Shown here piece by piece: positions 25,505 through 49,387 of a DNA stretch of 56,204 nt. Source of the DNA: an uncultured Planctomycetales bacterium (GTDB lineage Bacteria > Planctomycetota > Phycisphaerae > UBA1845 > Fen-1342); assembly GCA_964647015.1 (NCBI GenBank), contig CAZYGM010000001.1, positions 1-56,204 on the forward strand. The letters are read 5' to 3'. The notes below the pieces were generated by a model, which saw nothing but the letters and a program-made list of their open reading frames with translations, had not been told where the DNA came from and did no database searches. Position 1 is the stretch's first letter, and every line of letters begins with the position of its first letter. The position numbers and the translations under genes are program-made.

Positions 25505-28500
25505 ATGGCCGAACGCAGCTTGAACGCAGTATTGATGAAATTCTTCAACCTGCCGCCGGCTCTGCGCATGATCCTGGCGGTGGCCGGGTTCGGCTCGCTG
25601 GCATCCATCATGTTTTTCCTGACGCGCGGCTTTTTCCAGACGCGTTCGGGGAAGATATGGATTCTGGTGATCCTGCTGGGCGGCGCGGCGGTCTTTGGGC
25701 TCGTCTATCTCATTGTGCGTCTGTTCCGTGGCCGGCGCTCCTCGCAGCTCAGCGGCGCGCTGGAATCGCAGGGGCCGACGCGTGGTGACATCGCCGAGCA
25801 GGAGCGGCTGTATCGCGAGAAGTTCGCCGGCAAGCTGAACGACCTGCGTGCGAACGGGCTGTCCGTGTATCGGCTGCCGTGGTTCGTGCTGATGGGTGAG
25901 CCCGGCTGCGGCAAGACGGCCAGCCTGATTCACTCAGGGCTGGATTTCCCGCTGGGCAAGGACGAGGTGCCCGGCTTCGGCGGCACGCGCAACTACAACT
26001 GGTGGTTCACGAACGACGCCGTTGTGCTCGATACGGCGGGGCGCATCGCCTTCCAGGAAGAGGGCACGACTGATCGCGTCGAGTGGGAATATTTCCTGAC
26101 GCTGATGAAACGCCACCGCCCGCGCTGCCCGCTGAACGGGGTGATCCTGGCGTTGCCGGCCGACAAGCTGCTGCGCGACTCGGTGGAGGAGCGCGCCCAG
26201 AAGGCCACCGTGCTGCGGGAGCGGCTGCGGCAGATCCACCAGGCGCTGGGCGTGCGTTTCCCGACGTTCGTGCTGGTGACCAAGATGGACCTCGTGGGGG
26301 GCTTCAGCGAGTTCTTCGAGGACGTCCGCGTCGACCTGCAGCAGCGCAACCAGATGTTCGGCTGGTCGCGCCCGGGCGAGTTCGAGCAGGCTTTCGACAC
26401 GGCCGAGTTCCTGCCGGCGTTCGACGACGTGCACCATCGACTGCGCGACTGGTCGATGCGCTATCTCCAGCGCAAGGCCGCCGATCCGGAGCTTGGCCTG
26501 GTAGTGACGTTCCCGGAGGCCTTTCACGAACTGCGCGGCCCGCTGAACGATTACATCAGCACCGTCTTCCAGAAAAGCCCGCTGCTCGAGCCGCCCTTCT
26601 TCCGGGGCTTCTACTTCACTTCCGCCATGCAGGAAGGCGCGCCGATCTTCGACGTGTTCACGCGCGCGCACCCGGGGCTGACGCTGCCGGAACGCGCGGT
26701 GCGCGCCGTCGATTCAAAGGCTTTCTTCATACACGACTTCTATGAACGCAAGGTCTTTGCCGAGAAAGGGTTGGTGTTCCGGTCGGCCCAGCACGTGACG
26801 CTCAACCGGCGCATGCGGCGACTGGTGTGGGTCGGTTCGGCCGCCATGCTAGTCCTGATGCTGGCGCTGTTCGGCTTCGGTTACTTCGGCGTGAGCGACC
26901 TGGTGACGCAGCCCCAGGCTGATTGTGAACAGGCGGTCAAGAGCATCGGCCAGGCGCGGACGGGTGCGCCGACGTACACCCGGCTGGCTGAGAACCTCGA
27001 CTTGGCCGAGCGCCTGCAGCAACACTACGAAGCGTACGACCGGCCCTGGACCGGCTTACGGGCCCGCTCGCTGTACATCGGCGCGAATATAGCGCAGCCG
27101 CGCGACGCCGTCCGGAATATTCACGCGCGCTTCGTGTTGGAGACGATCCTCCGCCCGGTCATCCAGGAAGCTGAGCTGCAGCTTGGCTCCGTGGATGAGT
27201 TGGGCCGCTCGCCGGAGCAGTACCTGGCGGCCCTCGAAACCTACGCCGGCTGGTACGGCGAGCTGGTGGGTCAGCCGCGCGGCTGGCTGGATCAGGAGCA
27301 GGTGGGCCAGCGCGTTACCGAGGTTAAGGCACTGTTGACGTTTCTAAGCACCGGCGACGACACCCAGCAGCGCGCGCTCCGGCAGATTAATGCCGCGTTG
27401 GAGTCACCGGCGGGCGGGCGACGCCAGTTTGCCCGTCACGTCCTGGACAACACGCTGGGCCTCGAAGCGAACGCCATGACGGCCGTCCTGACAGCCGCCA
27501 TTCAGCATCTGACAGACCGCTGGATGCCGCTGACGCGGCTGGTGCCCGTGCCGCAGGACGATTTCCTGCGCTACTGGTCAGACCTGGCGGCGCACCTGGG
27601 CGCCGTGCGGACCCATTACACCGAGATTCTGGCACTGGCAGGCGCTTTCCGACAGGCGGACGAGTTCGATAGCGCTGCCGAGCGCTTCATGACTCTGACT
27701 GAGGGCGCGGAGTACCTGGGCCGCGCGACCACGCCGCCCAAGCCGGGGACAGTGGCGCGCGCGATGTTCGATTTGCGAGCGTTCCTGAGTGAACGCGAAG
27801 TGCCGCAGACGGAAGCTCGGCGGATTCGGCGCTTCGCGGACCAACTGGCCTGGATGGCCGGCCGCTGGGAGGCCGAGTTCGGACGGGTGCGGACGGCCCT
27901 GACCGCCGGATCACCGAGCGAACAGGAACGTCCGCAGCGCATCGTGTTTGAGGCTGTGGACGAGGCCCGCCGCCAACTGCACGCGCGCTACCAGACCAGC
28001 TTGCAGGAGCTGCGCGCGCAGTTGCAGGTTCCGGCTGAGCTGGAGCCCGCCGACTTCTACGAGCAGACCACGCGGTTGCTTACGCTGGTGGAGCAGCGCG
28101 CGGCCCTGCCGACGCTCGATGAGCAGCGGGCGGCGATCCGGCTGGCGGAACACCCGTTCGGGCGTTACGGCGAACTCGTCACGTACCTCACTGAGCTCCG
28201 CGGCATTGTGGACGCGGCGGGCACGGGTGATTTCCTTGATGATTTGCGGCGTTGGCCGGAGCTGTTGTCCACAGGGGGTACGGCGCTGCCGACGTCGCAG
28301 GCGTTGCGGACCTGGTTCGAGGGTGCCGGCGCGGGCAGGTCGCCGGGTGAGGAGGCGATCCGGCAATGGTCCGGGTTGGCAGAGCACCCGTTCTGGCGCG
28401 CGGCCGACCTGTATGGTCTGGCTGAGAGCATATGGCGGGGACATCAGCAGCGGACGGTCGGAACGCTACTGGAGCGGATGGAGGCGCGCTGTGCCGAGGT

Positions 28501-30358
28501 TGCGGGTGCGCGGGACTTGCCGGGGTTGGCGCGGCTGATGCCGGGATTCGACCAGCCGTCGGACGCCTTGCCGTTTGAGCGCCACGTGTCAGCAGCCGTT
28601 GTTGAGAAACCGCGCGAGGTCCTGCGGCAGCCCGAGCCGGTGAGGGAGAAGCAGGAGGAGGACGAGGACGATTGGCGCCAGTGGCGCCGCCAGCCGGCGG
28701 CGGCCCCGGCCGAGCGCGCCGCGGAGGTCACGCCTACACCGAGCGCGCCCGCGCCGACCGAGCAGTCGGCCGAGCGGCCGCCGCTGGTGCAATATCACAC
28801 CCGCGCTTTGCTGCACGAAACGGCCAAGGCGTACGGGGCGGTCTGCGCGACGCTGGGGGCGCATGGACAGCGCGGACAGCGCCTGCGGGGCGCCCTGGAT
28901 ACGGCGGCCAACGCCTATTTTGATCGCTACTTCCTGGATTGGAACGCCGCCTACGACGACTACCTAGTGTTGCTCGACGCGACGACGCTGGGGTTCCTAG
29001 ACAAGTGTCGCGCCGGCACGTTGGATTGGCCGGCGTTTCAGCAGGAGTTGAGCCGAACCGGGCGGGACATGACGGTGGAGTTCGCATCACGGCTGGAAGC
29101 GCTGGTGCGCGAGGTCGTGCTCTATCACGAGGTCTTTGAAGATGAAGGCCTGTACCGACACATCGAAGGGCGGCTCCAGAGCCTGGGCGTGCGGAATGAC
29201 CTGCGCAGCCGGCTGGACGACTTTGGACGGGCGGCGGATCAGCTCATGCGTCGTCGTATTGATCCGGTGAGCGCGCTGAGCGATTCCGTGGCGGAGGCGT
29301 GGCAGGGGTATTTGCGGCACATTGAGCGGACCGGGGCGGATCCCAAGGGGGCCGCCGCGCCGCCCAGCCGGGCAGCGCTTGAGACGGCCCTGACCGAGAT
29401 GATTGCGTGGCGCCGCATGCAGCCGGCGGACGTGCGGCTGTTCGCGCCGCTGCTGGATCTTGCCGCACATGGCGAGGTGCTGTTGCGCCACCACCTCGAA
29501 CGGGAGTTGGTCAGGCTGGCGGCCGACCGTCGCGGCCGGTACCCGCTTCTCGCGGACGCGCACGACCAGGATCCCGCCGGTCAGCGCCTGGCCCGGCTGG
29601 CCGAGAGCGCCCTGCCGGTCGGCGACCTGCTCGCCTTCCTGCGCTCCGCGGCGCGGTATCGGACCGATTACGGCACGCTGCTGACAGCCCTGCGGCGCGG
29701 CGATGCCGACCCATACGTCACAATGCTGGATCATTGCGCGGCGTGGGTCCAGTTCCTGTACGGTGATCAGCTCGGACGGTTGCGCGAGGAGGAACCGGCG
29801 CCGTTGCGTGTGAAGTGGGCGATCGCGCGGCGCGAAGGTACGACCAGCGCCGGCAATTTCTATAACCGGCTGACGATCACGCTCCCGCTGCTATCAAAGA
29901 CCGGTTACGACCCGGTTGGTCCGGTGGACGAGGAAGCGCGCAGTGGCCGGCTGGGGTCGCTACCGCCAAGCGCCACGGAGGCCCTGGCTGACCGGGACTA
30001 CGACTACCGCTGGAGCCTGGTGAAGCGCTCGGGCCAGGATTACCTGCCGCCGGCCGTGCGCGTCTGGGACAAGAACCCGCAGCTTGCGGGACCGGAGCAG
30101 GTACGGGCGGCGTGGCAGTTGCCAGGCAACCCCTGGTCGCTACTGCTTTTGGTCGGTGCTGATCCGGCCAACCGGCTCAGCGGCGGCGAATGGGTTATCC
30201 CCGTCATGATGAAGTTTGGCGACGAGACGATCGGCTTTGATATTGCGGTTCGTTTCGAGCGGCCGTTCCCGGGACCGATTGAGCCGGCACCCGATCCCGG
30301 CCCGCCGCCCGCGATGGAGGCGGCCCAGAAGTACATGTCCCCGGTGGCAGGCGGATAA
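25505..30358 (+). CDS. tssM: Type VI secretion membrane protein TssM (IcmF family), unusually long (1617 aa)
   Basis: TM hairpin at the N-terminus, Walker A LMGEPGCGKTA (25895-25918), a third TM near aa 440-465, then about 1150 aa predicted periplasmic. GGAGG 8 nt upstream of the ATG. Confidence 0.85.
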   Translation: MAERSLNAVLMKFFNLPPALRMILAVAGFGSLASIMFFLTRGFFQTRSGKIWILVILLGGAAVFGLVYLIVRLFRGRRSSQLSGALESQGPTRGDIAEQERLYREKFAGKLNDLRANGLSVYRLPWFVLMGEPGCGKTASLIHSGLDFPLGKDEVPGFGGTRNYNWWFTNDAVVLDTAGRIAFQEEGTTDRVEWEYFLTLMKRHRPRCPLNGVILALPADKLLRDSVEERAQKATVLRERLRQIHQALGVRFPTFVLVTKMDLVGGFSEFFEDVRVDLQQRNQMFGWSRPGEFEQAFDTAEFLPAFDDVHHRLRDWSMRYLQRKAADPELGLVVTFPEAFHELRGPLNDYISTVFQKSPLLEPPFFRGFYFTSAMQEGAPIFDVFTRAHPGLTLPERAVRAVDSKAFFIHDFYERKVFAEKGLVFRSAQHVTLNRRMRRLVWVGSAAMLVLMLALFGFGYFGVSDLVTQPQADCEQAVKSIGQARTGAPTYTRLAENLDLAERLQQHYEAYDRPWTGLRARSLYIGANIAQPRDAVRNIHARFVLETILRPVIQEAELQLGSVDELGRSPEQYLAALETYAGWYGELVGQPRGWLDQEQVGQRVTEVKALLTFLSTGDDTQQRALRQINAALESPAGGRRQFARHVLDNTLGLEANAMTAVLTAAIQHLTDRWMPLTRLVPVPQDDFLRYWSDLAAHLGAVRTHYTEILALAGAFRQADEFDSAAERFMTLTEGAEYLGRATTPPKPGTVARAMFDLRAFLSEREVPQTEARRIRRFADQLAWMAGRWEAEFGRVRTALTAGSPSEQERPQRIVFEAVDEARRQLHARYQTSLQELRAQLQVPAELEPADFYEQTTRLLTLVEQRAALPTLDEQRAAIRLAEHPFGRYGELVTYLTELRGIVDAAGTGDFLDDLRRWPELLSTGGTALPTSQALRTWFEGAGAGRSPGEEAIRQWSGLAEHPFWRAADLYGLAESIWRGHQQRTVGTLLERMEARCAEVAGARDLPGLARLMPGFDQPSDALPFERHVSAAVVEKPREVLRQPEPVREKQEEDEDDWRQWRRQPAAAPAERAAEVTPTPSAPAPTEQSAERPPLVQYHTRALLHETAKAYGAVCATLGAHGQRGQRLRGALDTAANAYFDRYFLDWNAAYDDYLVLLDATTLGFLDKCRAGTLDWPAFQQELSRTGRDMTVEFASRLEALVREVVLYHEVFEDEGLYRHIEGRLQSLGVRNDLRSRLDDFGRAADQLMRRRIDPVSALSDSVAEAWQGYLRHIERTGADPKGAAAPPSRAALETALTEMIAWRRMQPADVRLFAPLLDLAAHGEVLLRHHLERELVRLAADRRGRYPLLADAHDQDPAGQRLARLAESALPVGDLLAFLRSAARYRTDYGTLLTALRRGDADPYVTMLDHCAAWVQFLYGDQLGRLREEEPAPLRVKWAIARREGTTSAGNFYNRLTITLPLLSKTGYDPVGPVDEEARSGRLGSLPPSATEALADRDYDYRWSLVKRSGQDYLPPAVRVWDKNPQLAGPEQVRAAWQLPGNPWSLLLLVGADPANRLSGGEWVIPVMMKFGDETIGFDIAVRFERPFPGPIEPAPDPGPPPAMEAAQKYMSPVAGG

Positions 30359-37306: not shown

Positions 37307-37533
37307 TTCGGCCGTCTCGCTCGAGGAAGGGCGTACTTTATCGACGGCTGTCCGGGCCGGCAAGGATACCGACCGCCACGCGCGCGTTTTCGGCAGCCAG
37401 CGCAGGCATTCTGCAATGCCGCTGGCGGCGCTATTGGCGCAGACGCATGGTTCGCGCATACTAAGTGGTCTACGCTGTTTGACGACGTTTGACCCAGCCG
37501 GCCCAGCAGTGCCGGTGAGCGCGTGATAGAGCC

Positions 37534-37665
37534 ATGCATTACCCTCATCGAATCAGCAAGATCAAGCGTAAACGCAAGAGCGGCTTTCGGGCCCGCATGC
37601 GGACCAGCAACGGCCGCAAGCTCATCAACCGCCGGCGGCGGCTGGGGCGCCGTGTAAGTGCGTGA
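37534..37665 (+). CDS. rpmH: 50S ribosomal protein L34
   Basis: A 43-aa ORF too short for the supplied track: MHYPHRISKIKRKRKSGFRARMRTSNGRKLINRRRRLGRRVSA. It matches the L34 core (K.KR..GFR.RM.T..GR.....RR..GR). Confidence 0.9.
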   Translation: MHYPHRISKIKRKRKSGFRARMRTSNGRKLINRRRRLGRRVSA

Positions 37666-37740
37666 GGCATCCCGCCGGACACCCGGCTTGCTGGCCCGAC
37701 GCTGCCGGCGGCGCCGAGCGCCCGAGATCATGGGTGTGTT

Positions 37741-37814
37741 GCGCCTGTAGCTCAACTGGACAGAGCATCGGTCTTCGGAACCGAGGGTTGGGGGTTCGAA
37801 TCCCTCCGGGCGCG
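37741..37814 (+). tRNA. tRNA-Arg (anticodon TCG)
   Basis: 74-nt cloverleaf. Acceptor GCGCCTG/CGGGCGC, D-arm GCTC-AACTGGACA-GAGC, anticodon arm TCGGT-CTTCGGA-ACCGA, variable GGGTT, T-arm GGGGG-TTCGAAT-CCCTC, discriminator G. No encoded CCA. Confidence 0.9.
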
Positions 37815-38148
37815 CTTGTAAGTCTTCTTCCCGAAACGAGATAGGGCGGCCGGGCCAGCGGGCAGGCTGCGTGTGTAACTCGTTTTGTTGCGCCGGGTGG
37901 GGTCTTCCGGGAGAGCGGCGCCGCGGCGCGGCGGGCGCAGAACGAAGGCCGGGAATCCCGCGGACATGACTCCCGGCCTGGTGAATGGGTCTACCGCCGG
38001 CCCGGCATTGCTCACCGGGGAGCAGAAGGAGACCCAAATCATTCTGTGCTTACTCTATCCTAGCACTCACGCGGGCTTCCGCAAGCAGCGTGAGACTGTG
38101 ATCGGTACGGGCGGCCGTTCCTGAGTCGTGCGGCCCCAGGGCCGAACA

Positions 38149-38949
38149 TCAGTAGATGTGCGTGCTTTCCGTCTCCATGACAGGCGTCTTGATCTGATCA
38201 CTAAGCAAGCTGACGTGGAAGCGGCTATCGCCCTCCTTGGTGCCTTTGATCGTCACGGTGAAGACCGCCTGGGCCTTCGGCGCGAGTGTCGCCAGAGGGG
38301 CGAACTTGACCGTCCGGCCGTCCAGCTTGCCCGCAGTGGCGCCACCAGCCCTGACGAACTCATGTTCGTCGGGCAGCGTGCATTCTACCAGGATGCCCGT
38401 GCCGATCGCGGTGCCCTGGTTCGTCACAGTAATGGTGTACGTGACTTGGCCGCCGATCTCGATCGGATCGGGGTCGTCCACGCACTCCAGCAGAATCGCC
38501 GGGATGCCCTTGACCATGAACTCGCACGAAGCTTGCGCCTCGGCACAGTAGGTGACTTTGGCCACGTTGCGCACGGTGGTGATCTGATTGCAGCGTGCCT
38601 TGATCTGCAGGGTGCGGCTTTGGCCCGCGGCCAGGGTGCCGAGGCGCCAGATGATGTTGTTGCCCTCGCGCTGCCCGCCGTGGTCGGCGCTGTGGAACTC
38701 CACGCCGGTGGGGAGGTTGTCGGTGACCACCACGTTGAGCGCCGGTCCCGTGCCGCGATTGGTTACAGTGAGCTCAAAAGTGGCATCGCGGCCGACGTAG
38801 CGCAGGTCGGGGCATTTCTTGACTAGTTCGATGTGCGGTGCGCCGTCCGTGGCTGTGCTGGGCGGCGCGGCCTCATCGGTCTGTGCCGCACACAGCAGGC
38901 CTGTGAATAGTGCGATAGTTACCGTAGCCAGAACGCCGTGAAGTTTCAT
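38149..38949 (-). CDS. Secreted DUF11-repeat protein, OmcB-like (2 repeats)
   Basis: Signal peptide present. Two DUF11 cores (ATFELTVTNRGTGPALNVVVTDNLPTGVEF and VTYTITVTNQGTAIGTGILVECTLPDEHEF). The C-terminus ends ...DSRFHVSLLSDQIKTPVMETESTHIY. AGGAGG 8 nt upstream of the ATG. Confidence 0.85.
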   Translation of the reverse strand: MKLHGVLATVTIALFTGLLCAAQTDEAAPPSTATDGAPHIELVKKCPDLRYVGRDATFELTVTNRGTGPALNVVVTDNLPTGVEFHSADHGGQREGNNIIWRLGTLAAGQSRTLQIKARCNQITTVRNVAKVTYCAEAQASCEFMVKGIPAILLECVDDPDPIEIGGQVTYTITVTNQGTAIGTGILVECTLPDEHEFVRAGGATAGKLDGRTVKFAPLATLAPKAQAVFTVTIKGTKEGDSRFHVSLLSDQIKTPVMETESTHIY

Positions 38950-39094
38950 GAGAAGGTCCTCCTATTCGTGGATGAAAGCTGACATGGTACTGCCCGTCAC
39001 AGGACCGCGCGTCGCACCCGGGCAAGCCAATGCCAAGCCCGGTCCGCACCGGACCCAATCCGCCCGGGCGGAACTTGTCGGCGCGCGGCGTTGA

Positions 39095-40597
39095 TCAGTA
39101 AACCTGCGTGCTCTCCGTCTCCTCGACGGAACTGGTGGTCTGGTCGCTATTCATGCTGACTTTGAAGCGCGCGTCGCCCTCCATTACGCCCTTGGCCACC
39201 ACTTGGTACAGCGCCTTGGCCTTTGGCGCCAGCGATGCCAGCGGCCCGAAGCGGACCGTCTTGCCCGCCGCGCTGACCGGTGCGGGCCCGGTGGCCGATA
39301 CATACTGCAGCTCTTCCGGCAGCGTGCAGTCAATCGTGATGTTGGTGCTCGCCGCGGAGCCCTGATTGGTCACCTCGATTGTATAAGTGACATTGCCGCC
39401 GATCTCGATCGGATCGGGATGATCGACCACTTCCAGCAGGATGGCCGGAATACCCTGGACATGCAGAGTCGCGGCCGCCGAGCCGCGGGCACAATACGCC
39501 TGCGCCATGGCGGTGTTCCGCAGTGTGCCGATCTCATTGGGCTTAATGGTGAGCCTGACGGTCCGCGAAGTCCGCGGCGCCAGGGTGCCGAGGTTCCAGG
39601 TCACCGCGCCGCCGACAAGCTGACCGCCCTCTGCGCTGACCAGCTCGACCCCGGGGGGCAGCGGGTCGGTCAGGACCGTGTCCCGGGCCGGGGCGTCACC
39701 GGTGTTCTCCACGGTGATCTCGAATGTTGCCGCCCGACCGAGATAGCGCACATCCGGTCCGCGCTTGCTGACCGCCAGGACCGGCTGCCGCACTATGGTG
39801 GTCGTCGCGGCTTCGGCCGTCAGTCCGCTGTCGCCCTCCGCCCGAGCTCGGTTGTGATACGTCCCGACCCCAAGGGCCTGCACCGTAACCGCGAACCGGC
39901 GCGACTGGCCCGCGGCGAGGTCGCCGGCATCAAGTACGAAGCTGGTCCGGCCGTCCGGCGTCGACCAGCCGTCCGGCAGCGCGTCAGTGATGCGCACGTT
40001 CCTGATGACGCCGGTGCCGGAGTTCGAAACGACGAATTGCAGCGGGATCGGGTCGCAGGTGAGAACTTCGCGCGGCGCGGACTTAGTGAGCGCAAGCTGC
40101 GGCTCAACCACGTTGACGCTCGCACACCAACCGGTGCTGAATGTGACTGCGCCACACAGCCAGAGCGGCTCGGTCCGGTCCGTCGAACCCTGGACGCGGA
40201 TGAGTTCCGTGCCGCCCGGGGCCAGCGCGGCCCATTTCCACGTGCCACGCCCTTCGGCATCGAGCACGGTGCGCGGGGCGGTTGCCCGAACGCTGAAGCC
40301 GGTGGGGAACAACTCAGTAAGCACGAGGTCCCGCACTTCGAGCCGGGTCAGATTGGTCAACCTGATCTGGTATGCGAAGTCCGTGTTGGCGCGAACCTCA
40401 GCCGGGACAAACCGCTCCAGCAGAATCACGCTGGTCGCTGGGTCGCCCGTCGGGTAGGCCACGGCGGTTCGTACCAGCGCCGCGCCGCCGGCCGGGGGTG
40501 CCGATGCTCGCTGCGCCGGTGCACTCGGAGGAGTGCTGCCGAGCAGCAGAAGTGCAGTGACTAGCGCCGCCGGGCCCGGGTGCCGTTGCACTGTCAT
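39095..40597 (-). CDS. Secreted DUF11-repeat protein, OmcB-like (4 repeats)
   Basis: The ATG at 40597 (GGAG 7 nt upstream) gives the signal peptide MTVQRHPGPAALVTALLLLG.... Four DUF11 cores. The last ~227 aa are paralogous to the neighbouring genes and end ...EETESTQVY. Confidence 0.85.
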   Translation of the reverse strand: MTVQRHPGPAALVTALLLLGSTPPSAPAQRASAPPAGGAALVRTAVAYPTGDPATSVILLERFVPAEVRANTDFAYQIRLTNLTRLEVRDLVLTELFPTGFSVRATAPRTVLDAEGRGTWKWAALAPGGTELIRVQGSTDRTEPLWLCGAVTFSTGWCASVNVVEPQLALTKSAPREVLTCDPIPLQFVVSNSGTGVIRNVRITDALPDGWSTPDGRTSFVLDAGDLAAGQSRRFAVTVQALGVGTYHNRARAEGDSGLTAEAATTTIVRQPVLAVSKRGPDVRYLGRAATFEITVENTGDAPARDTVLTDPLPPGVELVSAEGGQLVGGAVTWNLGTLAPRTSRTVRLTIKPNEIGTLRNTAMAQAYCARGSAAATLHVQGIPAILLEVVDHPDPIEIGGNVTYTIEVTNQGSAASTNITIDCTLPEELQYVSATGPAPVSAAGKTVRFGPLASLAPKAKALYQVVAKGVMEGDARFKVSMNSDQTTSSVEETESTQVY

Positions 40598-40705
40598 CGT
40601 CCAGCTCCATTCCGCCTCGCGCAGGGACAACCGGCGCCCGGTGAGGCACACGGCAAAAGGGGGCACCGGGCGGTTAACCCAGTGCCCCGCTTGTCTGGCA
40701 ATACG

Positions 40706-42982
40706 TCAATAGACGTGCGTGCTTTCGGTTTCCTCGACCGGCGTTTGCAGCACGTCGCTGGTCAGAGTCGTCCTGAAGCGCAGGTCACCCACCTCCAGGC
40801 CCCTGACGACCACCTTGTAGACGAGCCTGGCCTTCGGCGCCAACGACGGCACGGGTGCGAACCGCACGACCTTGCCGTCCACAGTGGCGCGCGTCGGACC
40901 CTCGCTGGAGACGTACTCCTGCTCGCCCGGCAGCGTGCACTCGATGACGATGTTTGTGTCATCGGCAGTGCCCTGGTTGGTCACCGTGATGATGTAAGTC
41001 TCGAGGGCACCGACCTCGATCGGGTCCTCGACGTCGATCACCTCGAGCAGGATGGCCGGCACGCCGACGATCGGCATGCTGGCTTCTGCCCGGGCCTCGG
41101 CGCAATACGCCTTGGCGACAGCAACGTTCCTGACGGTGCCAGGGGTGACAGACCGCAGAGTGACAGTAACCTTCTTGGACGCCCCGGGCTGCAGCGTGCC
41201 GAGGTTCCAGGTAACGACGCCGTTGGCGAACGCGCCGCCATCGCTGGCCTCCGTGAACTCCGTGCCGGCCGGGACGGTGTCCGTGAGAACAGTGTCGCGG
41301 GCCGGGGCATCACCGGTGTTCTTAACGGTGATTTCGAAGACCGCCGGACGGCCGATGTAGCGGCGCTCCGGCGCCTTCTTGGTGACTTCCAGCTCGGGAC
41401 TGCTGACCACCGTCGTGCACGCCGTTTCGGCGGTCAGATCGTTGGCAGCCGTCGCGACGACCTTGTTCTCGAACCGGCCGGTCCTGCTGGCCTTCGCCGC
41501 AATGCGGATCTCACGCGACTGACCCGGCCCGAGATCGCCGACGTCGGTGGTGACGGAGCGTTCGCCGGACAGGGTCGTGATGCCGTCCGGAAGCGTATCG
41601 ACCACGCGGACCCGGGTGGCCGGGCCGTCGCCGGTGTTGCGGACGACGATGACGTACTCGATCGGGTCGCAGAGGGTCACCGTGGCCGGGCAGCGTTTCT
41701 CAATCGCCAGTGCCGGGGCGGTGACGACCGTCGTCGCGCAGCAGCGCGTGGCCAGATTCAGGTCGCCACGCACGTCGACGCAGTTTTCAAACCGGCCCGT
41801 GTTGGTGGCCTTGACCTGGATGCTAATCGCCTTGGACGAGTTGCTGCCGATGGTGCCCAGCGCCCAGGTCAGCGTCTGACCGCGTGCCTCGGCCGCCGGG
41901 CTGCTGGAGACGTAGCTGATGCCGGCCGGCAGGTTGTCGGTCACCACGATGTTCTTGGCGTCGACCTCGGACGGGTTCGATACGCTGATCTCGTAAGTGA
42001 ACTGCTGGCCGGCCAGCGCTGCCGCCGGCGCCATCTTGTTGCACGCGATCCGCGGGCCGATCCACGTCTTGGCCGTCTGGCCCATGGCGATGTGAACCGG
42101 TGGCTCACAGCACTCTTCTCTGCCGAGCCGCCAGACGTCGATCGAGATGTTGTTGGTGCCTTCGGCCGGCTGAACTTGCTTGAGCGTGACCTTGGCAACG
42201 CCGCTGCCGTCCGTTCTCACAACCGCCGTCGGCTGCCCGCCGGGCTCGAATACCGCGGCCGGACCGTCGACGACCCGGTAGGTAACCTCATAGTCAGCCA
42301 GTGGCGTGCCGTCGGAATGTTTGGTGATGACGGTGGCGAAGTCGTGCGTGGTGCCGATCGGATTCGTGGCCGGCGGCGGGAACTGCCACCGCACATCATA
42401 CCAGTGCTTGGTCGCGAAGACCTTGTGGTTCTCCCAGTTATAAATGCCAGGAGCATAGACGATGACGTGCGTGTCGCCCTCGATGGGCGAGGTGATCGTG
42501 CACCACGTCTGGCCCGGCTCCAGGTGCACGTCGTCGGACGGATCATCCGTCCCGCGGTCGAGCACGCGTCTGAAGTTGTTAGTGTGCGAGACTGCGTAGC
42601 GCGACGTGACCTTGTAGCCGCGACTCGCGCGCCAGCCGCTCTCATCAACTTCCACGATGTCGCCGACGCTCCCTTCGGCCAGGGTCCATTCCACCCGGCG
42701 GTTGGGCAGGGGCTTGCCATCCTTGTCGCGCACGGTCGCCACGAGCACATGCTGCGTCCGGACCGGATTCACCGCCTCGACCGGGACAACATCGAGTGAC
42801 ACTGCGTAAGGATCCCAGTTCTGGTAGTACCCTCCTTCCGGCGGCTTCGCGTGTGTGTACTGCACGTTGCCGCCCGCCGGCCAGGTGAACGAGTGCGGCA
42901 TGTGATTGCGACACCCTGCCGCAACCGTCAGTGCCAGCAGCGCCATCACGAGAGTTCGAGTACGGATCGCCCGTTGCAACAT
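40706..42982 (-). CDS. Lipoprotein with N-terminal Ig-like region and 4 DUF11 repeats, OmcB-like
   Basis: The ATG at 42982 (AAGGAG 6 nt upstream) gives MLQRAIRTRTLVMALLALTVAAGC (lipobox). About 300 aa with Big_1-like segments (VATVRDKDGKPLPNRRVEWTL), then four DUF11 cores. Ends ...EETESTHVY. Confidence 0.85.
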   Translation of the reverse strand: MLQRAIRTRTLVMALLALTVAAGCRNHMPHSFTWPAGGNVQYTHAKPPEGGYYQNWDPYAVSLDVVPVEAVNPVRTQHVLVATVRDKDGKPLPNRRVEWTLAEGSVGDIVEVDESGWRASRGYKVTSRYAVSHTNNFRRVLDRGTDDPSDDVHLEPGQTWCTITSPIEGDTHVIVYAPGIYNWENHKVFATKHWYDVRWQFPPPATNPIGTTHDFATVITKHSDGTPLADYEVTYRVVDGPAAVFEPGGQPTAVVRTDGSGVAKVTLKQVQPAEGTNNISIDVWRLGREECCEPPVHIAMGQTAKTWIGPRIACNKMAPAAALAGQQFTYEISVSNPSEVDAKNIVVTDNLPAGISYVSSSPAAEARGQTLTWALGTIGSNSSKAISIQVKATNTGRFENCVDVRGDLNLATRCCATTVVTAPALAIEKRCPATVTLCDPIEYVIVVRNTGDGPATRVRVVDTLPDGITTLSGERSVTTDVGDLGPGQSREIRIAAKASRTGRFENKVVATAANDLTAETACTTVVSSPELEVTKKAPERRYIGRPAVFEITVKNTGDAPARDTVLTDTVPAGTEFTEASDGGAFANGVVTWNLGTLQPGASKKVTVTLRSVTPGTVRNVAVAKAYCAEARAEASMPIVGVPAILLEVIDVEDPIEVGALETYIITVTNQGTADDTNIVIECTLPGEQEYVSSEGPTRATVDGKVVRFAPVPSLAPKARLVYKVVVRGLEVGDLRFRTTLTSDVLQTPVEETESTHVY

Positions 42983-43890
42983 CTTTGGCTCCTTATGTTT
43001 CTGTTCCACACTTCACATGCACCCAGATATGTATGAGACCGTGATCCCACGGTGCCAGACAAGCAATGACCCAGCGGTCGCTTCACGCGCTGCAATCGCG
43101 GGGGACCGCACACGGCGCTGCGACGGCCACCGAAAGCTGGACCCGACAGCGCTTTCCTGCACAGACCCTGATGCACAAATGCAGCAGATGCGTCCAACTG
43201 AGCCGCTCAACATGGGCAACATCACTCCGCAGATGATTCGGTGCGACAACCATGGCGCACGGTGTGACCGCTGTTCCGCGCGCCGCTTGCCCACAAGATC
43301 GCCGCAGTCGTCTGCTTGTTTGCCGCCAAGACTGGCTTGGCAAGTCAGCTGTGCGATACATCCGAGTGCCGACTCCACCAAAAGTGGAAAACGCGCCACC
43401 CGGCAACTGCAGCCGCCTGTCAGAGACTGGCGCCACCGCAACACCGCCTGCCACGGAGCATAAGCCAATCTGTACGAACTGAACGCGCCGGCACTCGCCC
43501 AAGTCAGCCGACTCGCTCACGTGCGTTGCCCGCACCTACCAGCCCACGCGGCTGGCGACCATAAACGCCCGACATGTACAGGTTAAGCTTAGCTTGCGGT
43601 AGCAGTCCCTTCAAGCCGTGCAAGAGCCTTACCCGCATTTTTCGACGATGCAACGTATCTGTGCCTTCACCAACAGCACTGTGACATCGGTACGCGCAGA
43701 AGCGGCCCGCCCCTTTATCCACACCACCCGCCCGCATGTCGCGAGTACCCCGTCAAAACAGCTAAACTGCCGTCCTGGAGCTACTTGCGGCACAATCCAC
43801 CCGCGGCAACTCGACGTTTTAAGCAGTTTGCCAAGTGACGGCGAACCGCCAGCACCACGCCAAACCCAGCCATCGCTGCACTACTGCGGC

Positions 43891-45063
43891 TCAGTCATCC
43901 ACGTGGGCATTTCTCGGCGGAACCCACAAGACCATACCCTCACGGATGCTGTCCGGATCACGTATCTGATCACGGTTGACGTGATAGATCTCCTCCCAGC
44001 GCGCCGCGTCCCCAAGCAGACGTTCCGCGATGCGCGTCAGCGTGTCGCCGCGCTGCACTACATAGGGCCTCATCGGCGGCGTAGTCGCCACACGCGCCGG
44101 AACAGTCGTCGGTGACTGGGCCGCCGCGCGGGCCTCCGGGCCAATGCCCGCCGGCGGCTGCGCCCCGGCCCCGGCTTCCGCTTGATCCCCGTCGCTGCCG
44201 GCACGCGTCTCCGGCGCCAAGTCCGCGGCAGGTAGTCGTGCACCGCTGCGCGCTGCGGCGTCAGTGTTCTCCTGGGGCACTGCATCCGGCGTACTTTCAT
44301 CCGGCCAGGCACACGCCATCCAGTACTCCGCCAGCCATTCCTGAAGAGCCGCCAATCCGGCGTCGGTCCAGAAGCACTCGGCGGCCCGGGCAACCGCATC
44401 TTGCGGAGCAGCGCCATCACCTGGCTCGACCACAGGCGTCCGCGCTGCTGGTCGGCGTCCCGGCGGAGCCGCGCTGGACGCTGCGGACACAGCCGCGGCA
44501 GGTGGGCCCGCGCCTGGCGGCGCCGGGGCCCGAGGCGGCTCCGCGACGGTGCGTGGCGGCGCGACCGGAACAGGGCGCTGCGCAGCCACCGCCCGTCTGG
44601 GCTCGGGCGGCACGGCGCACGATGCCTCTGCCAGGCACTCGCCGGCAACCGTGTACACACGAAACGTGGCCGACACCGGTCGACTGCCCGGCCGCGTTGG
44701 CAATGCCGTCAGCGGGATTGCAAGCGGAAGGTCCTTGAAGGTGGCCGGTGATTCTGCCACAAGGATGGTTCGGCTGGCCGCCACGGCGCCGGATCGGTTC
44801 TGATAGCGCCCATCCGCCGATCGGACCGGCCTGTCCGCCGCGTCATGCAGACTGACTTCGTATATGAGCTCTTCGCCAACCAGGCCCTCAGTATCAAGCG
44901 TGACCGTGAAAGCCAGCGCGCCGCGGTCCTGACCGTGCTGCACGCGCTGACATACGGGATCGGTGAGCCGGGCTTGTTGCAGGGCGCACCCGCCCGTCAG
45001 GCTCAGCAGCACACCCCCGCATCCCCACAGAAGGACTCGTCTCATGCGCTCGCGTCTGGGCAT
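43891..45063 (-). CDS. LysM-domain lipoprotein
   Basis: The ATG at 45063 (GGAGG upstream) gives ...LLSLTGGC (lipobox). There is a long Pro/Ala-rich linker and a C-terminal LysM domain: YVVQRGDTLTRIAERLLGDAARWEEIYHVNRDQI. Confidence 0.75.
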   Translation of the reverse strand: MPRRERMRRVLLWGCGGVLLSLTGGCALQQARLTDPVCQRVQHGQDRGALAFTVTLDTEGLVGEELIYEVSLHDAADRPVRSADGRYQNRSGAVAASRTILVAESPATFKDLPLAIPLTALPTRPGSRPVSATFRVYTVAGECLAEASCAVPPEPRRAVAAQRPVPVAPPRTVAEPPRAPAPPGAGPPAAAVSAASSAAPPGRRPAARTPVVEPGDGAAPQDAVARAAECFWTDAGLAALQEWLAEYWMACAWPDESTPDAVPQENTDAAARSGARLPAADLAPETRAGSDGDQAEAGAGAQPPAGIGPEARAAAQSPTTVPARVATTPPMRPYVVQRGDTLTRIAERLLGDAARWEEIYHVNRDQIRDPDSIREGMVLWVPPRNAHVDD

Positions 45064-45654
45064 GTCCTGCCTCCATCCTGGCCTGCGGGTGTCTGCGTAA
45101 CCTGTCGGCTGCCGCCAGTACCGCACACGTTTGGCCGCTGTTGAGACGCCATCCTGACGGCCACATCCCTGGCAGAGCCGCGTGCGACACGCCGGCAAAA
45201 CCACCTAGATAGCGCAATCATAGTCCACCGACCCGCTCTCGGCGAACAAGGACGGCAGCCGAGGCAGCCGAAGCCGGCCTCGGCGTCTGAGTAACTCCTG
45301 CCGAAGCAAGACGGATGCGGTTCCGTTGCCTCGCGGTCGCCCAGCGCAGCACCGGAGCGGATCTTCATCCAACTGAATAAAGAGGCCCCCGGACGGCCGG
45401 ACGCCTCAGAAGCGCCGTGCCATCGGCCCCGGTACACAATGGTGTCCGACCAAGCCGACACGCGACGAGCCAAGTCTCGCCGACCGCGCCTACGAGACCC
45501 GTCCGGCTGCTAACATCCGAATCTCAACGCCCGAGTTCAGCACCAGTGTGCTCACGGCGGCGCGCCTCCGTGCATGCCGAGCGAACACAATCGCCACTCC
45601 GTCGCAGACATACACGCTGGACAATACGAGCGGCCCCCGCTTCGCGCTGCTGCG

Positions 45655-47530: not shown

Positions 47531-49387
47531 GTGGATGGTCTACCCAGGAGGATGCTGACAGTGCGCGACACCACCGCAGTAATCGGTCTCGTGTTCTGCC
47601 TCTTCATCGCAAACCAGGCCGCGGCCGAGGTCACGCCCGAACACCCCAGCCCGGCGTTCTTGCGGCCGCTGCTGCTCAAGCCAAACCCGCTGCTGGTCAG
47701 CGTGGAAGTTCTGTCGCCCTCCATCGACTGGGCCACCATCACCGACGTCAAGGTGGCGGACTTCGATGACGATGGACGAAATGACCTCGCGGTCGCGTGG
47801 TTCTCCACCGACTTCCAGGACCTCATCCACAACAGTCGCCGAATGCTCTCCATCTTCTTTGGCGACGGCGCGGGTTTCCGACCGGCGCAGCACTACGACC
47901 TGTATATCCCTGACGCCGCCTGCCCGGCCATGTCGGTCTTTCGCTTTGGAACGTCCACGATCGGCGTGGGCGATTTCGACGGCGACGGCGACCTCGATCT
48001 GGCCGTGCTGGCGTTCTTCGGCGACGAGATCTGGTTCCTGGAGAACCGCGGTGACGGCACGTTTGAGCAGCACCTGCGGTTCCTTTTCGGTGTCAACACT
48101 GCCGGCAATTTCGTTACGCCTCCCGCAGCTTACGGCGTTGACTTCGATGGTGACGGGCGCGACGAACTGGTCTACTTGCTTGATCCAATCATGCAGATCG
48201 AGCAGCGCACGATCCATTTCTGGCGCACGGAGGGAGCCATTGCTGACATCTACCGGCCCGACTGGCGCTCCACGAGCGACGTATTCGTGCAATGGACGCG
48301 CGCCATGGCCATCGGCGACTTCGACGGCGACGGCAAGCTGGACATCTGCTTCTCCGGCTCGGTCAATCCGCCGTTAGAAGACGATCCCATGCTGACCGTC
48401 TGGCACAGTTTCAACCCGGCCAGCGGGCTCTTCGCCGTTAAACACATCGTGCCCTCATTCCTCTGCTCGGACGTGGCGTCTGCAACGCTTCCGGGCCACG
48501 GACTGCCCAGCCTTATCCTGACCGACCTGGATGGAACCGCGATGGAGTGCTGGGTCAATCAGCACTCCGGCCAGATCGATTTCGCGCTGGCGGCGCAGTT
48601 GGACGGTTATGCCGGTCTTTCACCCGGCCGCGGCGTCGCGGCCGTCGTGGCAGACGTGAATGGCGACGGAAACCCCGACCTGGTCACCAAGCAGGGCGTC
48701 GGCACCATCGGTGACGCGCGGCAGGTCGAAGTAACCCTGTCCAACGGCTTGGGAACCACCTGGTGGATCGCGACACCGCCCACCCTCGACTCCACCGGTC
48801 TATGCACCGATCCCTCATCCCAGATTCTAAGACCGCGCAACCTGGCAGTTGCCGATCTTTGGGGCAACACGCTGCCGGAGATCGTGACCGGATTCGGGCA
48901 CGCCGGGGCCGGTACGCCCGGCGGCGGATCGGGCGGCTGGCTGCACCTGGCCATCTGGGAGAACAGTTGCATCGGCGACGTGAACCGCGACGGCATGACC
49001 AGCGGTCGCGATGCCAGCATCGTTGCCCGGGCCATGGGCAAAACGGCTGGCGCGCCGGGCTTCGTTCCCGATGCCGATATCGACAAGGACGGGGCCATCA
49101 CCACGCAGGACCTGCAAATCGTCTTGGCCGACCTGGGCTGCGTCGCGCGCGTGCCTGGCCCGATCGCCGCGTGTGCCGGCCAACTACCCGGTGACGCCAA
49201 CTGCGACGGCGCGCTTAACGCCCTCGATATCATGGCCTTCGAGTTCGGTCGGCATGCTGGTCAGACCGCTTGGAATGCAACCTACGGCGACGCGGGCTGC
49301 GACTACGACGGCGCGCTGGACGTGAACGGTGACGGCGTCATCGACGCCTGGGACATCGACATGCTGGTGCTGCTGCTGACCCGCTGA
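47531..49387 (+). CDS. FG-GAP/VCBS repeat protein with C-terminal dockerin-like EF-hand repeats
   Basis: Repeated GDFDGDGDLDLAV, VDFDGDGRDELV, GDFDGDGKLDI and ADVNGDGNPDLV. The C-terminal pairs DVNRDG..., DIDKDGAITTQDL, DANCDGALNALD and DVNGDGVIDAWD are dockerin type I-like. The start is uncertain (47531, 47552 or 47561). Confidence 0.8.
   Translation: MDGLPRRMLTVRDTTAVIGLVFCLFIANQAAAEVTPEHPSPAFLRPLLLKPNPLLVSVEVLSPSIDWATITDVKVADFDDDGRNDLAVAWFSTDFQDLIHNSRRMLSIFFGDGAGFRPAQHYDLYIPDAACPAMSVFRFGTSTIGVGDFDGDGDLDLAVLAFFGDEIWFLENRGDGTFEQHLRFLFGVNTAGNFVTPPAAYGVDFDGDGRDELVYLLDPIMQIEQRTIHFWRTEGAIADIYRPDWRSTSDVFVQWTRAMAIGDFDGDGKLDICFSGSVNPPLEDDPMLTVWHSFNPASGLFAVKHIVPSFLCSDVASATLPGHGLPSLILTDLDGTAMECWVNQHSGQIDFALAAQLDGYAGLSPGRGVAAVVADVNGDGNPDLVTKQGVGTIGDARQVEVTLSNGLGTTWWIATPPTLDSTGLCTDPSSQILRPRNLAVADLWGNTLPEIVTGFGHAGAGTPGGGSGGWLHLAIWENSCIGDVNRDGMTSGRDASIVARAMGKTAGAPGFVPDADIDKDGAITTQDLQIVLADLGCVARVPGPIAACAGQLPGDANCDGALNALDIMAFEFGRHAGQTAWNATYGDAGCDYDGALDVNGDGVIDAWDIDMLVLLLTR

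Follow-up and report, generated by a model that had tools for sequence, protein, structure and literature searches.

A three-gene cluster encoding predicted OmcB-family envelope proteins in an uncultured planctomycete of the class Phycisphaerae

Contig CAZYGM010000001.1 (NCBI GenBank assembly GCA_964647015.1) of an uncultured Planctomycetales bacterium (GTDB class Phycisphaerae, UBA1845, Fen-1342), of which positions 1 to 56,204 (56,204 nucleotides) are the window analysed here, carries three tandem genes, designated A, B and C, whose products contain DUF11/CLIPPER repeats and resemble the chlamydial envelope protein OmcB. OmcB, also known as the 60-kDa large cysteine-rich outer membrane complex protein, Omp2, EnvB or OMP6, serves the infectious form of chlamydiae as a major antigen and structural protein and is usually seen as a chlamydial speciality; to our knowledge, no OmcB structure has been solved. 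That planctomycetes have OmcB homologues is not new and has been in print since 2006, when Griffiths, Ventresca and Gupta reported the Rhodopirellula baltica protein CAD72259 (907 aa, E-value 3e-25), which is similar mainly in its C-terminal part and contains no Cys (PMC1403754). PVC-wide conservation of chlamydial outer-membrane proteins, that is, across the Planctomycetes-Verrucomicrobia-Chlamydiae superphylum, was described by Heinz et al. (2009). The locus raises the question of whether A, B and C are true homologues of OmcB or share only generic repeats with it, and of what role such proteins would play in the envelope of a planctomycete.

Kinship of A, B and C with OmcB

The comparisons identify A, B and C as true homologues of OmcB, with a likeness beyond that of generic DUF11 proteins. 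An OmcB sequence served only as bait for retrieving authentic entries named OmcB (P0121, P0122, P0126 and others); the OmcB C-terminus given in the initial annotation of this locus matched these database sequences exactly. In BLASTP comparisons with OmcB P0121, residues 330-758 of A aligned with residues 121-549 at 31% identity (E 4e-59), residues 76-500 of B aligned with the same region at 29% identity (E 9e-56), and residues 48-266 of C aligned with residues 327-549, the last two domains, at 32% identity (E 3e-29). In a multiple alignment, the four-domain cores (D1-D4) of A and B lined up nearly without gaps with those of five chlamydial OmcBs and three non-chlamydial relatives. When single domains were scored all against all, D4-D4 pairings reached 185-341, while any other pairing scored 88 or less. 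By this scoring, D4 forms a subtype of its own and is clearly orthologous in position to D4 of OmcB. D1 to D3 correspond position by position, either directly or via the intermediate sequences P0237 and P0239, which bridge all four domains. The colinear alignments, the D4 orthology and the common C-terminal motif are thus at odds with a merely generic DUF11 similarity and an unshared motif, the outcome that the initial annotation had named as the one that would speak against its reading.

The three proteins resemble OmcB in having a signal peptide and then, in A and B, four tandem CLIPPER/DUF11 immunoglobulin-like (Ig) domains in the same order; the identity is 29-31% for A and B along ca. 430 residues and 33-37% within the terminal cassette. 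Further likenesses are the terminal domain, which lacks the Lys-Asp-Asn triad described below and ends in TE(S/N)TH(V/I)Y, the Cys of a CAEA motif and an adjacent lipoprotein gene. TESTHVY, the end of A, is the commonest C-terminus among 88 chlamydial-type OmcBs and the commonest ending in environmental chlamydiae. The Tyr of this motif is the final residue in all 88 chlamydial sequences, as against 49 of the 108 planctomycete homologues. Since Tyr is last in just these 49, it more likely closes the final beta-strand than acts as an obligatory C-terminal signal; a role as an obligatory terminal sorting signal, which was also considered, is weakened by the 58 of 108 planctomycete homologues that have 1-3 residues beyond it.

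Family models were less discriminating than the alignments. Protein A reached 60.7 bits with Pfam PF03504 (Chlam_OMP6; cut-off 34.1), a total made up of cross-hits on D3 and D4 that are each below threshold, and B (23.6 bits) and C (32.5 bits) stayed under the cut-off. Because this model spans only D1 in OmcB (residues 94-184, 194 bits), PF03504 was downgraded as evidence for the kinship. The NCBIfam release used holds no OmcB-specific model, and authentic OmcB matches only TIGR01451 in it. The same DUF11-type repeat model, TIGR01451, was the only NCBIfam model above its cut-off for all three window proteins; A was also above the cut-off of TIGR04226, a model of an isopeptide-forming fimbrial domain.

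Two other relatives of OmcB were seen in these comparisons. The Cys-poor relative nearest to OmcB is P0239 (515 aa), which is followed by a 389-aa CLIPPER paralogue (L080, 7001-9813), so that tandem pairs recur in other branches of the family. An OmcB-like protein represented by P0230, P0299 and P0300 (L082, 7001-8608) has 36% identity to OmcB and 9.4% Cys, carries a series of CPxxCPxx repeats at its N-terminus and has QQESTIVN, with no final Tyr, as its last residues; no obvious OmcA-like or second CLIPPER gene lies beside its gene in L082.

Domain architecture, isopeptide triads and cysteines

The open reading frames (ORFs) of A, B and C lie on the same strand with gaps of 108 and 145 bp, in agreement with the initial annotation (Table 1). 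Each is preceded at 6-8 nt from its start by its own Shine-Dalgarno-like sequence (AAGGAG for A, GGAG for B and AGGAGG for C), and inspection of the N-termini indicated an export signal for each protein, namely a lipobox in A and signal-peptidase-I-type signals in B and C. Protein A starts with MLQRAIRTRTLVMALLALTVAAG↓C, and LTVAAG↓C meets the lipobox pattern with a conserved +1 Cys, which is nearly invariant in the alignment (36 of 38 A-type orthologues); A is therefore a predicted lipoprotein. A lipobox-like N-terminus was also present in 13 of 45 B-type sequences.

Pfam PF01345 (DUF11/CLIPPER) matched four, four and two stretches in A, B and C (E 5e-54, 2e-42 and 1.5e-32; 181.8, 144.6 and 112.8 bits, the cut-off being 24.6), bearing out the repeat numbers first given for them. 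The C-terminal two-domain cassette (D3-D4, ca. 230 aa), with 50-55% pairwise identity among A, B and C and near-identical ends, was recovered as well. At the DNA level, the three genes have 77 invariant columns among their final 150 nt, and the last ca. 30 nt are near-identical, as had been noticed. With a genome G+C content of ca. 65%, this similarity can be attributed to the conserved peptide and a GC-rich codon bias, so that gene conversion is not needed as its cause.

The AlphaFold2 (AF2) model of C (mean predicted local distance difference test score, pLDDT, 88.9) consists of two Ig-like sandwiches in tandem, and its fold matches in PDB were generic E-set tandems, such as integrin calf domains and transglutaminase C-terminal domains. 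A PDB sequence search with full-length A gave no match at E up to 1. Residues 25-309 of A, which precede D1, found homologues solely among A-type proteins. The model of this module (pLDDT 86.4) matched Yersinia InvE best and then invasin, S-layer Ig and macroglobulin MG domains, all with low template modelling (TM) scores, and its Pfam Big_1 (PF02369) score of 34.9 bits exactly equalled the cut-off of 34.9. The predicted fold and this borderline match thus liken the region to the Big_1 domains of invasin and intimin. Unlike those proteins, A has neither a beta-barrel anchor nor a C-terminal lectin-like binding domain, and the module stands beside a predicted N-terminal lipid anchor.

Table 1. 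Features of the A-B-C cluster and its upstream flank (positions in the window; residue numbers are those of each protein).
Feature	Coordinates	Strand	Description
Gene A	40706-42982	minus	758 aa from ATG; predicted lipoprotein with invasin-like Ig module and D1-D4; ends EETESTHVY
A signal peptide and lipobox LTVAAG↓C	42911-42982	minus	Residues 1-24; sequence inspection
A N-terminal module, tandem Big_1/invasin-like Ig	42056-42910	minus	Residues 25-309; Pfam, AF2, fold search
A D1 (CLIPPER)	41720-42055	minus	Candidate triad K316/D349/N400
A D2 (CLIPPER)	41399-41719	minus	Candidate triad K429/D462/N506
A D3 (CLIPPER)	41060-41398	minus	Candidate triad K535/D568/N619; first half of cassette; ends with invariant Cys627 (AYCAEA)
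A D4, OmcB-type terminal domain	40709-41059	minus	Triad-less: Glu at Lys position, Cys/Ala at Asp position; ends TESTHVY
Gene B	39095-40597	minus	500 aa from ATG; Sec signal and four CLIPPER domains, matching OmcB directly in architecture; ends EETESTQVY
B D1	40103-40426	minus	Degenerate, triad-less (Glu/Glu); invariant Cys148/Cys158
B D2 and D3	39449-40102	minus	Candidate triads K172/D205/N249 and K278/D311/N361
B D4, OmcB-type terminal domain	39098-39448	minus	Alignment and domain scoring
Gene C	38149-38949	minus	266 aa; Sec signal and D3-D4 cassette only; ends METESTHIY
LysM lipoprotein gene	43891-45063 (ORF to 45204)	minus	ca. 390 aa from internal ATG; Pfam LysM
Non-coding gap	43010-43890		880 bp, GC 60.8%; between LysM lipoprotein gene and gene A; no gene called in homologous L001

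DUF11 was renamed CLIPPER in 2025, when the crystal structure PDB 9IFR revealed a CnaA-like domain with a Lys715-Asn806 isopeptide bond and a nearby catalytic Asp (PMC12617251). Lys, Asp and Asn are invariant in six domains of the window, namely D1, D2 and D3 of A, D2 and D3 of B and D3 of C (K44/D77/N128). A profile of these six domains aligned with the full length of 9IFR and placed the three residues on chain positions 10, 44 and 101, the E-value being weak (0.11). Counted along the chain, these positions are Lys-715, the Asp of LNDTLG and Asn-806. The Asp is residue 749 when counted from the Lys-715 and Asn-806 anchors, as against Asp-748 in PMC12617251, a discrepancy of one residue. The triads are, by this alignment, candidate isopeptide-bond sites. 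Membership in the same Pfam family, the CnaA-like Ig fold and the aligned Lys, Asp and Asn of D1-D3 are shared with the CLIPPER domain of Acinetobacter silvestris B9T28_05395, from which 9IFR derives, and the bond is verified there and predicted here.

The triads are well kept among orthologues. In A-type proteins each residue occurs in at least 34 of the 38 orthologues (37-38 of 38 in D1 and 35-37 of 38 in D2), the D2 and D3 triads of B-type proteins are found in 32-36 of 41 with D1 degenerate, and the C-type triad is present in 25 of 25. D4 is always triad-less, and its Glu (E647 of A) is kept in 38 of 38 orthologues. The chlamydial OmcB sequences counted, from the set P0121-P0229, were 19 Chlamydiaceae-type and 69 other chlamydial proteins. 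D1 of the chlamydial OmcBs is also triad-less (Gln/Gln), like D1 of B (Glu/Glu). Complete triads were found in none of the 19 Chlamydiaceae-type OmcBs, in 65 of the 69 other chlamydial OmcBs in D2 and likewise in 65 of 69 in D3, and in all nine non-chlamydial OmcB relatives in each of D2 and D3. The presence of triads in OmcBs outside Chlamydiaceae and in their relatives indicates that they are ancestral and were lost only in Chlamydiaceae. A chlamydia-wide rule that disulfides replaced isopeptide bonds was considered and rejected, as it is true of Chlamydiaceae only. In the searchable literature, we found no paper that ties OmcB to isopeptide bonds.

The description of the proteins as cysteine-rich did not hold. 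Cys makes up 1.7% of A, 1.0% of B and 2.6% of C, as compared to 3.3-14.9% in chlamydial OmcBs (means of 5.4% in the Chlamydiaceae type and 9.9% in the others). In the four-domain core alignment nearly no OmcB cysteines are conserved, and the OmcB cysteine clusters are lacking. Certain Cys residues are nevertheless invariant within each orthologue group: six in C (Cys 46, 120, 135, 142, 156 and 190), four in B, and C438 and C627 in A. Of the Cys positions that had been thought to align with OmcB, that of TYCAEA/TSCAEA does so; this CAEA Cys corresponds to C422 of OmcB (in the alignment for paralogue C) and is invariant in all three orthologue groups. The Cys of LECV in C, however, is one residue off, the partner of OmcB C438 in the alignment being the conserved Glu that occupies the Lys position of D4, and that of ECTLP has no counterpart in OmcB. 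A disulfide between Cys627 (AYC) and Cys682 (ECTLP) of A was rejected, as it found no support in covariation (C627 in 38 of 38 orthologues, C682 in 26 of 38). A suggested link to the YTV cell-wall proteins also failed: no YTV family was among the Pfam matches, and YTV proteins are reported to be exclusive to the class Planctomycetia (PMC8567305, PMC12673574), while the named relatives here belong to Phycisphaerae.

A, B and C also differ from OmcB in lacking its basic heparin-binding N-terminus (the N-termini of B and C are Ala/Pro-rich, and A has Ig domains instead). Protein A adds a predicted lipid anchor and invasin-like domains, and C has the last two domains only. In place of the 9-kDa cysteine-rich OmcA, their neighbour is a LysM-type lipoprotein of ca. 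390 aa. The triads, all lost in the OmcB of Chlamydiaceae, are intact, and the host is free-living and belongs to a class reported to keep most peptidoglycan-synthesis genes. Set beside CAD72259 by description, A is likewise a planctomycete protein longer than OmcB, with C-terminal similarity and without the OmcB cysteines. CAD72259 comes from another class, Planctomycetia, and PMC1403754 describes neither an A/B/C set nor a lipobox, triads or a LysM-lipoprotein neighbour.

Orthologue groups and gene neighbourhood

The homologues of C were DUF11 proteins from Phycisphaerae and Planctomycetota. Species-representative genomes scanned with an alignment of planctomycete sequences, a query that recovers only the planctomycete branch of the family, yielded at least 421 relatives, nearly all in metagenome-assembled genomes (MAGs) of Planctomycetota. 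The loci were surveyed with a hidden Markov model of the cassette over 79 loci, of which 38 carried A-type and 41 carried B-type genes; 25 C-type sequences entered the triad counts above. The tandem pair of an A-type (ca. 757-830 aa) and a B-type gene (ca. 480-590 aa) occurred in ca. 25 of the 79 loci. C-type genes (ca. 250-285 aa) are mostly solitary and lie on other contigs of the same genomes (L015 with L032, L010 with L040, and L023 with both L044 and L051), and the complete A+B+C array was confined to the close relatives L001-L005 and L007. Many genomes contain separate orthologues of each type, with 50-75% identity and tightly conserved lengths. A, B and C are, on these comparisons, three ancient orthologue groups across Phycisphaerae and Planctomycetota, and not a series of local duplications within the nested 2/4/4 family that had been proposed, given that the types have separate orthologues and that C is mostly found elsewhere.

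Several MAGs (L017, L021, L023, L028, L037, L044, L051 and L061) bear the labels Victivallales, Verrucomicrobia, Lentisphaerae, Alphaproteobacteria or Anaerolineae. They carry typical Phycisphaerae-type A, B or C genes (50-63% identity), and one 'Alphaproteobacteria' bin has all three types. These labels are probably binning or labelling errors rather than a true distribution; the 'PVC-wide' spread that was first suggested rests on MAG labels, some of which are doubtful.

The gene upstream of A (43891-45204) encodes a predicted lipoprotein (LSLTGG↓C) whose N-terminal domain is conserved but unannotated and is followed by a Pro/Ala-rich linker and, at the C-terminus, LysM, the latter being present in the window protein and in about half of its family. 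It is the only neighbour in the window that recurs beyond close relatives (21 loci). In 19 of the 36 loci with sufficient flank it adjoins the A-type gene on the same strand, and its position is shuffled: upstream of A, between A and B, or downstream. The transketolase, epimerase, ApbE, LeuRS and FG-GAP/dockerin protein genes of the window showed no synteny in the other loci. The gap at 43010-43890, which is unusually long and of lower GC and is conserved only in the nearest relative (77%), is probably a promoter and leader region. In Rfam, promoter-consensus and terminator scans of 37400-45400, only a tRNA was found, a tRNA-Arg (anticodon TCG) at 37741-37815 on the plus strand, between gene C and the transketolase gene and opposite in strand to both. 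Elsewhere in the window, a 1617-aa ORF (25505-30358, plus) has a near-identical 1619-aa counterpart in L001 with a match to Pfam IcmF-related_N, and a protein of 618 aa that combines FG-GAP repeats with a type I dockerin domain (47531-49387, plus) is probably exported or located at the surface.

A candidate envelope scaffold and its alternatives

A role in an envelope scaffold can be inferred from the homology to OmcB together with the gene context. We consider it probable, with moderate confidence, that A, B and C are exported, all-beta, rod-like envelope proteins of the OmcB family that form or join a periplasmic or outer-membrane-associated scaffold. OmcB has been modelled as an elongated Ig-domain protein, predicted to be trimeric, that forms a periplasmic scaffold under the outer membrane with OmcA as a lipoprotein tether and with disulfide cross-links (PMC13254160). 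In a corresponding manner, A, B and C would build or attach to a scaffold that is periplasmic or sits at the outer membrane's inner face. A would bring its own lipid anchor, the part that OmcA plays in Chlamydia, and the LysM lipoprotein would tie the system to peptidoglycan. The common D3-D4 module may act as a docking or oligomerisation unit and is a probable shared interface. Rigidity would be owed mainly to isopeptide bonds within each molecule and to a few conserved disulfides, in place of the dense, redox-switchable network of disulfides in Chlamydiaceae. Lpp and Pal are lipoproteins that tether the outer membrane to peptidoglycan, and the neighbour protein is like them, as a functional analogy only, in joining a lipobox, a long flexible linker and LysM; it has no sequence relationship to them, LysM is missing from about half of its family, and its role is proposed by analogy.

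Several points weigh against the scaffold. The Cys content is ordinary and so does not imply a cross-linked lattice like that of OmcB. CLIPPER domains are a typical feature of surface fibrillar adhesins (PMC12617251), and OmcB is itself also an adhesin. A triad alone is no proof of a bond, and the match of the six-domain profile to 9IFR, though it covers the full domain, is weak. LysM and the neighbour gene are each found in only about half of the cases (half of the neighbour family and 19 of 36 loci, respectively). In localisation, expression and biochemistry alike, the scaffold role of A, B and C is a prediction from sequence and context.

The main rival to the scaffold is that A, B and C are surface fibrillar adhesins, in which isopeptide-locked CLIPPER stalks present a binding tip for particles, polysaccharides or cells. 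CLIPPER/DUF11 is characteristically the stalk of such adhesins (PMC12617251), OmcB has been reported to be surface-exposed and heparin-binding, with a role as an adhesin (PMC2811131), and the N-terminal module of A resembles invasin and InvE. We nevertheless regard this explanation as unlikely. The family scans found just 2-6 domains and no recognisable adhesive tip domain, and no surface-sorting domain or dedicated secretion signal turned up in the Pfam and NCBIfam scans; in these respects, and in the triad-less terminal domain, the proteins differ from fibrillar-adhesin CLIPPER proteins. The basic heparin-binding stretch of OmcB is missing from A, B and C on inspection. Unlike fast-evolving adhesins, the proteins have single-copy orthologues of tightly kept length (ca. 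758, ca. 500 and ca. 266 aa) across the class, and their recurrent neighbour is a lipoprotein with LysM, a peptidoglycan-binding domain.

[quoted passage not shown] The OmcB homology is real, each group has its invariant Cys, and the CAEA Cys is common to OmcB. The low Cys content and the near absence of conserved OmcB cysteines, however, argue against such a complex, as does the lack of an adjacent small cysteine-rich OmcA-like gene, the sole recurrent neighbour being the LysM-type lipoprotein gene. Moreover, a 2025 review places Phycisphaerae among the classes that have lost only ftsZ, ftsB, ftsA and alr and have kept the mur genes (PMC12673574), so that no peptidoglycan substitute would be needed.

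The view that these are generic DUF11 repeat proteins with a repeat-level likeness to OmcB and a coincidental C-terminus, to which the summed Chlam_OMP6 cross-hits (not a positional match to OmcB D1), the missing OmcB-specific NCBIfam model and the generic Ig tandems among the PDB folds would conform, is effectively refuted by the near-gapless colinearity over ca. 430 residues (E ca. 1e-56 to 1e-59), the positional orthology of the distinct D4 subtype, a C-terminal heptapeptide identical to that of environmental chlamydiae and the bridging of all four domains by P0237 and P0239. A recent local tandem duplication with truncation (nested 4/4/2), perhaps with 3' ends homogenised by gene conversion, would account for the same-strand adjacency and the 3'-end DNA similarity, and is contradicted by the separate orthologues of each type, the mostly solitary C-type genes on other contigs of A+B genomes, the merely 50-55% identity of the paralogous cassettes and the confinement of the triple array to close relatives.

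In the searchable literature, we did not find a description of the A/B/C set, of A as a lipoprotein with a built-in invasin-like module, of the LysM-lipoprotein synteny or of the family-wide triad pattern. Current views are not overturned by these findings. A tentative scenario, which we think possible but would not lean on, is that the OmcB family began as an isopeptide-locked periplasmic scaffold tied by lipoproteins to the outer membrane and to peptidoglycan, with the planctomycete A, B, C and LysM proteins near this ancestral, free-living state. Environmental chlamydiae would have added dense Cys and kept the D2 and D3 triads, and Chlamydiaceae would have lost all triads in favour of a redox-switchable disulfide lattice; D3-D4 with its TEST-x-x-Tyr end would be the conserved assembly interface.

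The triad pattern predicts that most members of the family, including the OmcBs of environmental chlamydiae, are stabilised by Lys-Asn isopeptide bonds, with disulfides in their place in Chlamydiaceae. For Phycisphaerae, the cluster is a candidate part of a poorly characterised envelope and of its link to peptidoglycan. Free-living planctomycetes have conserved, Cys-poor relatives of OmcB, and if these are also present in cultured members, they would make a non-pathogenic and tractable system for work on the fold, the assembly interface and the location of this protein family.

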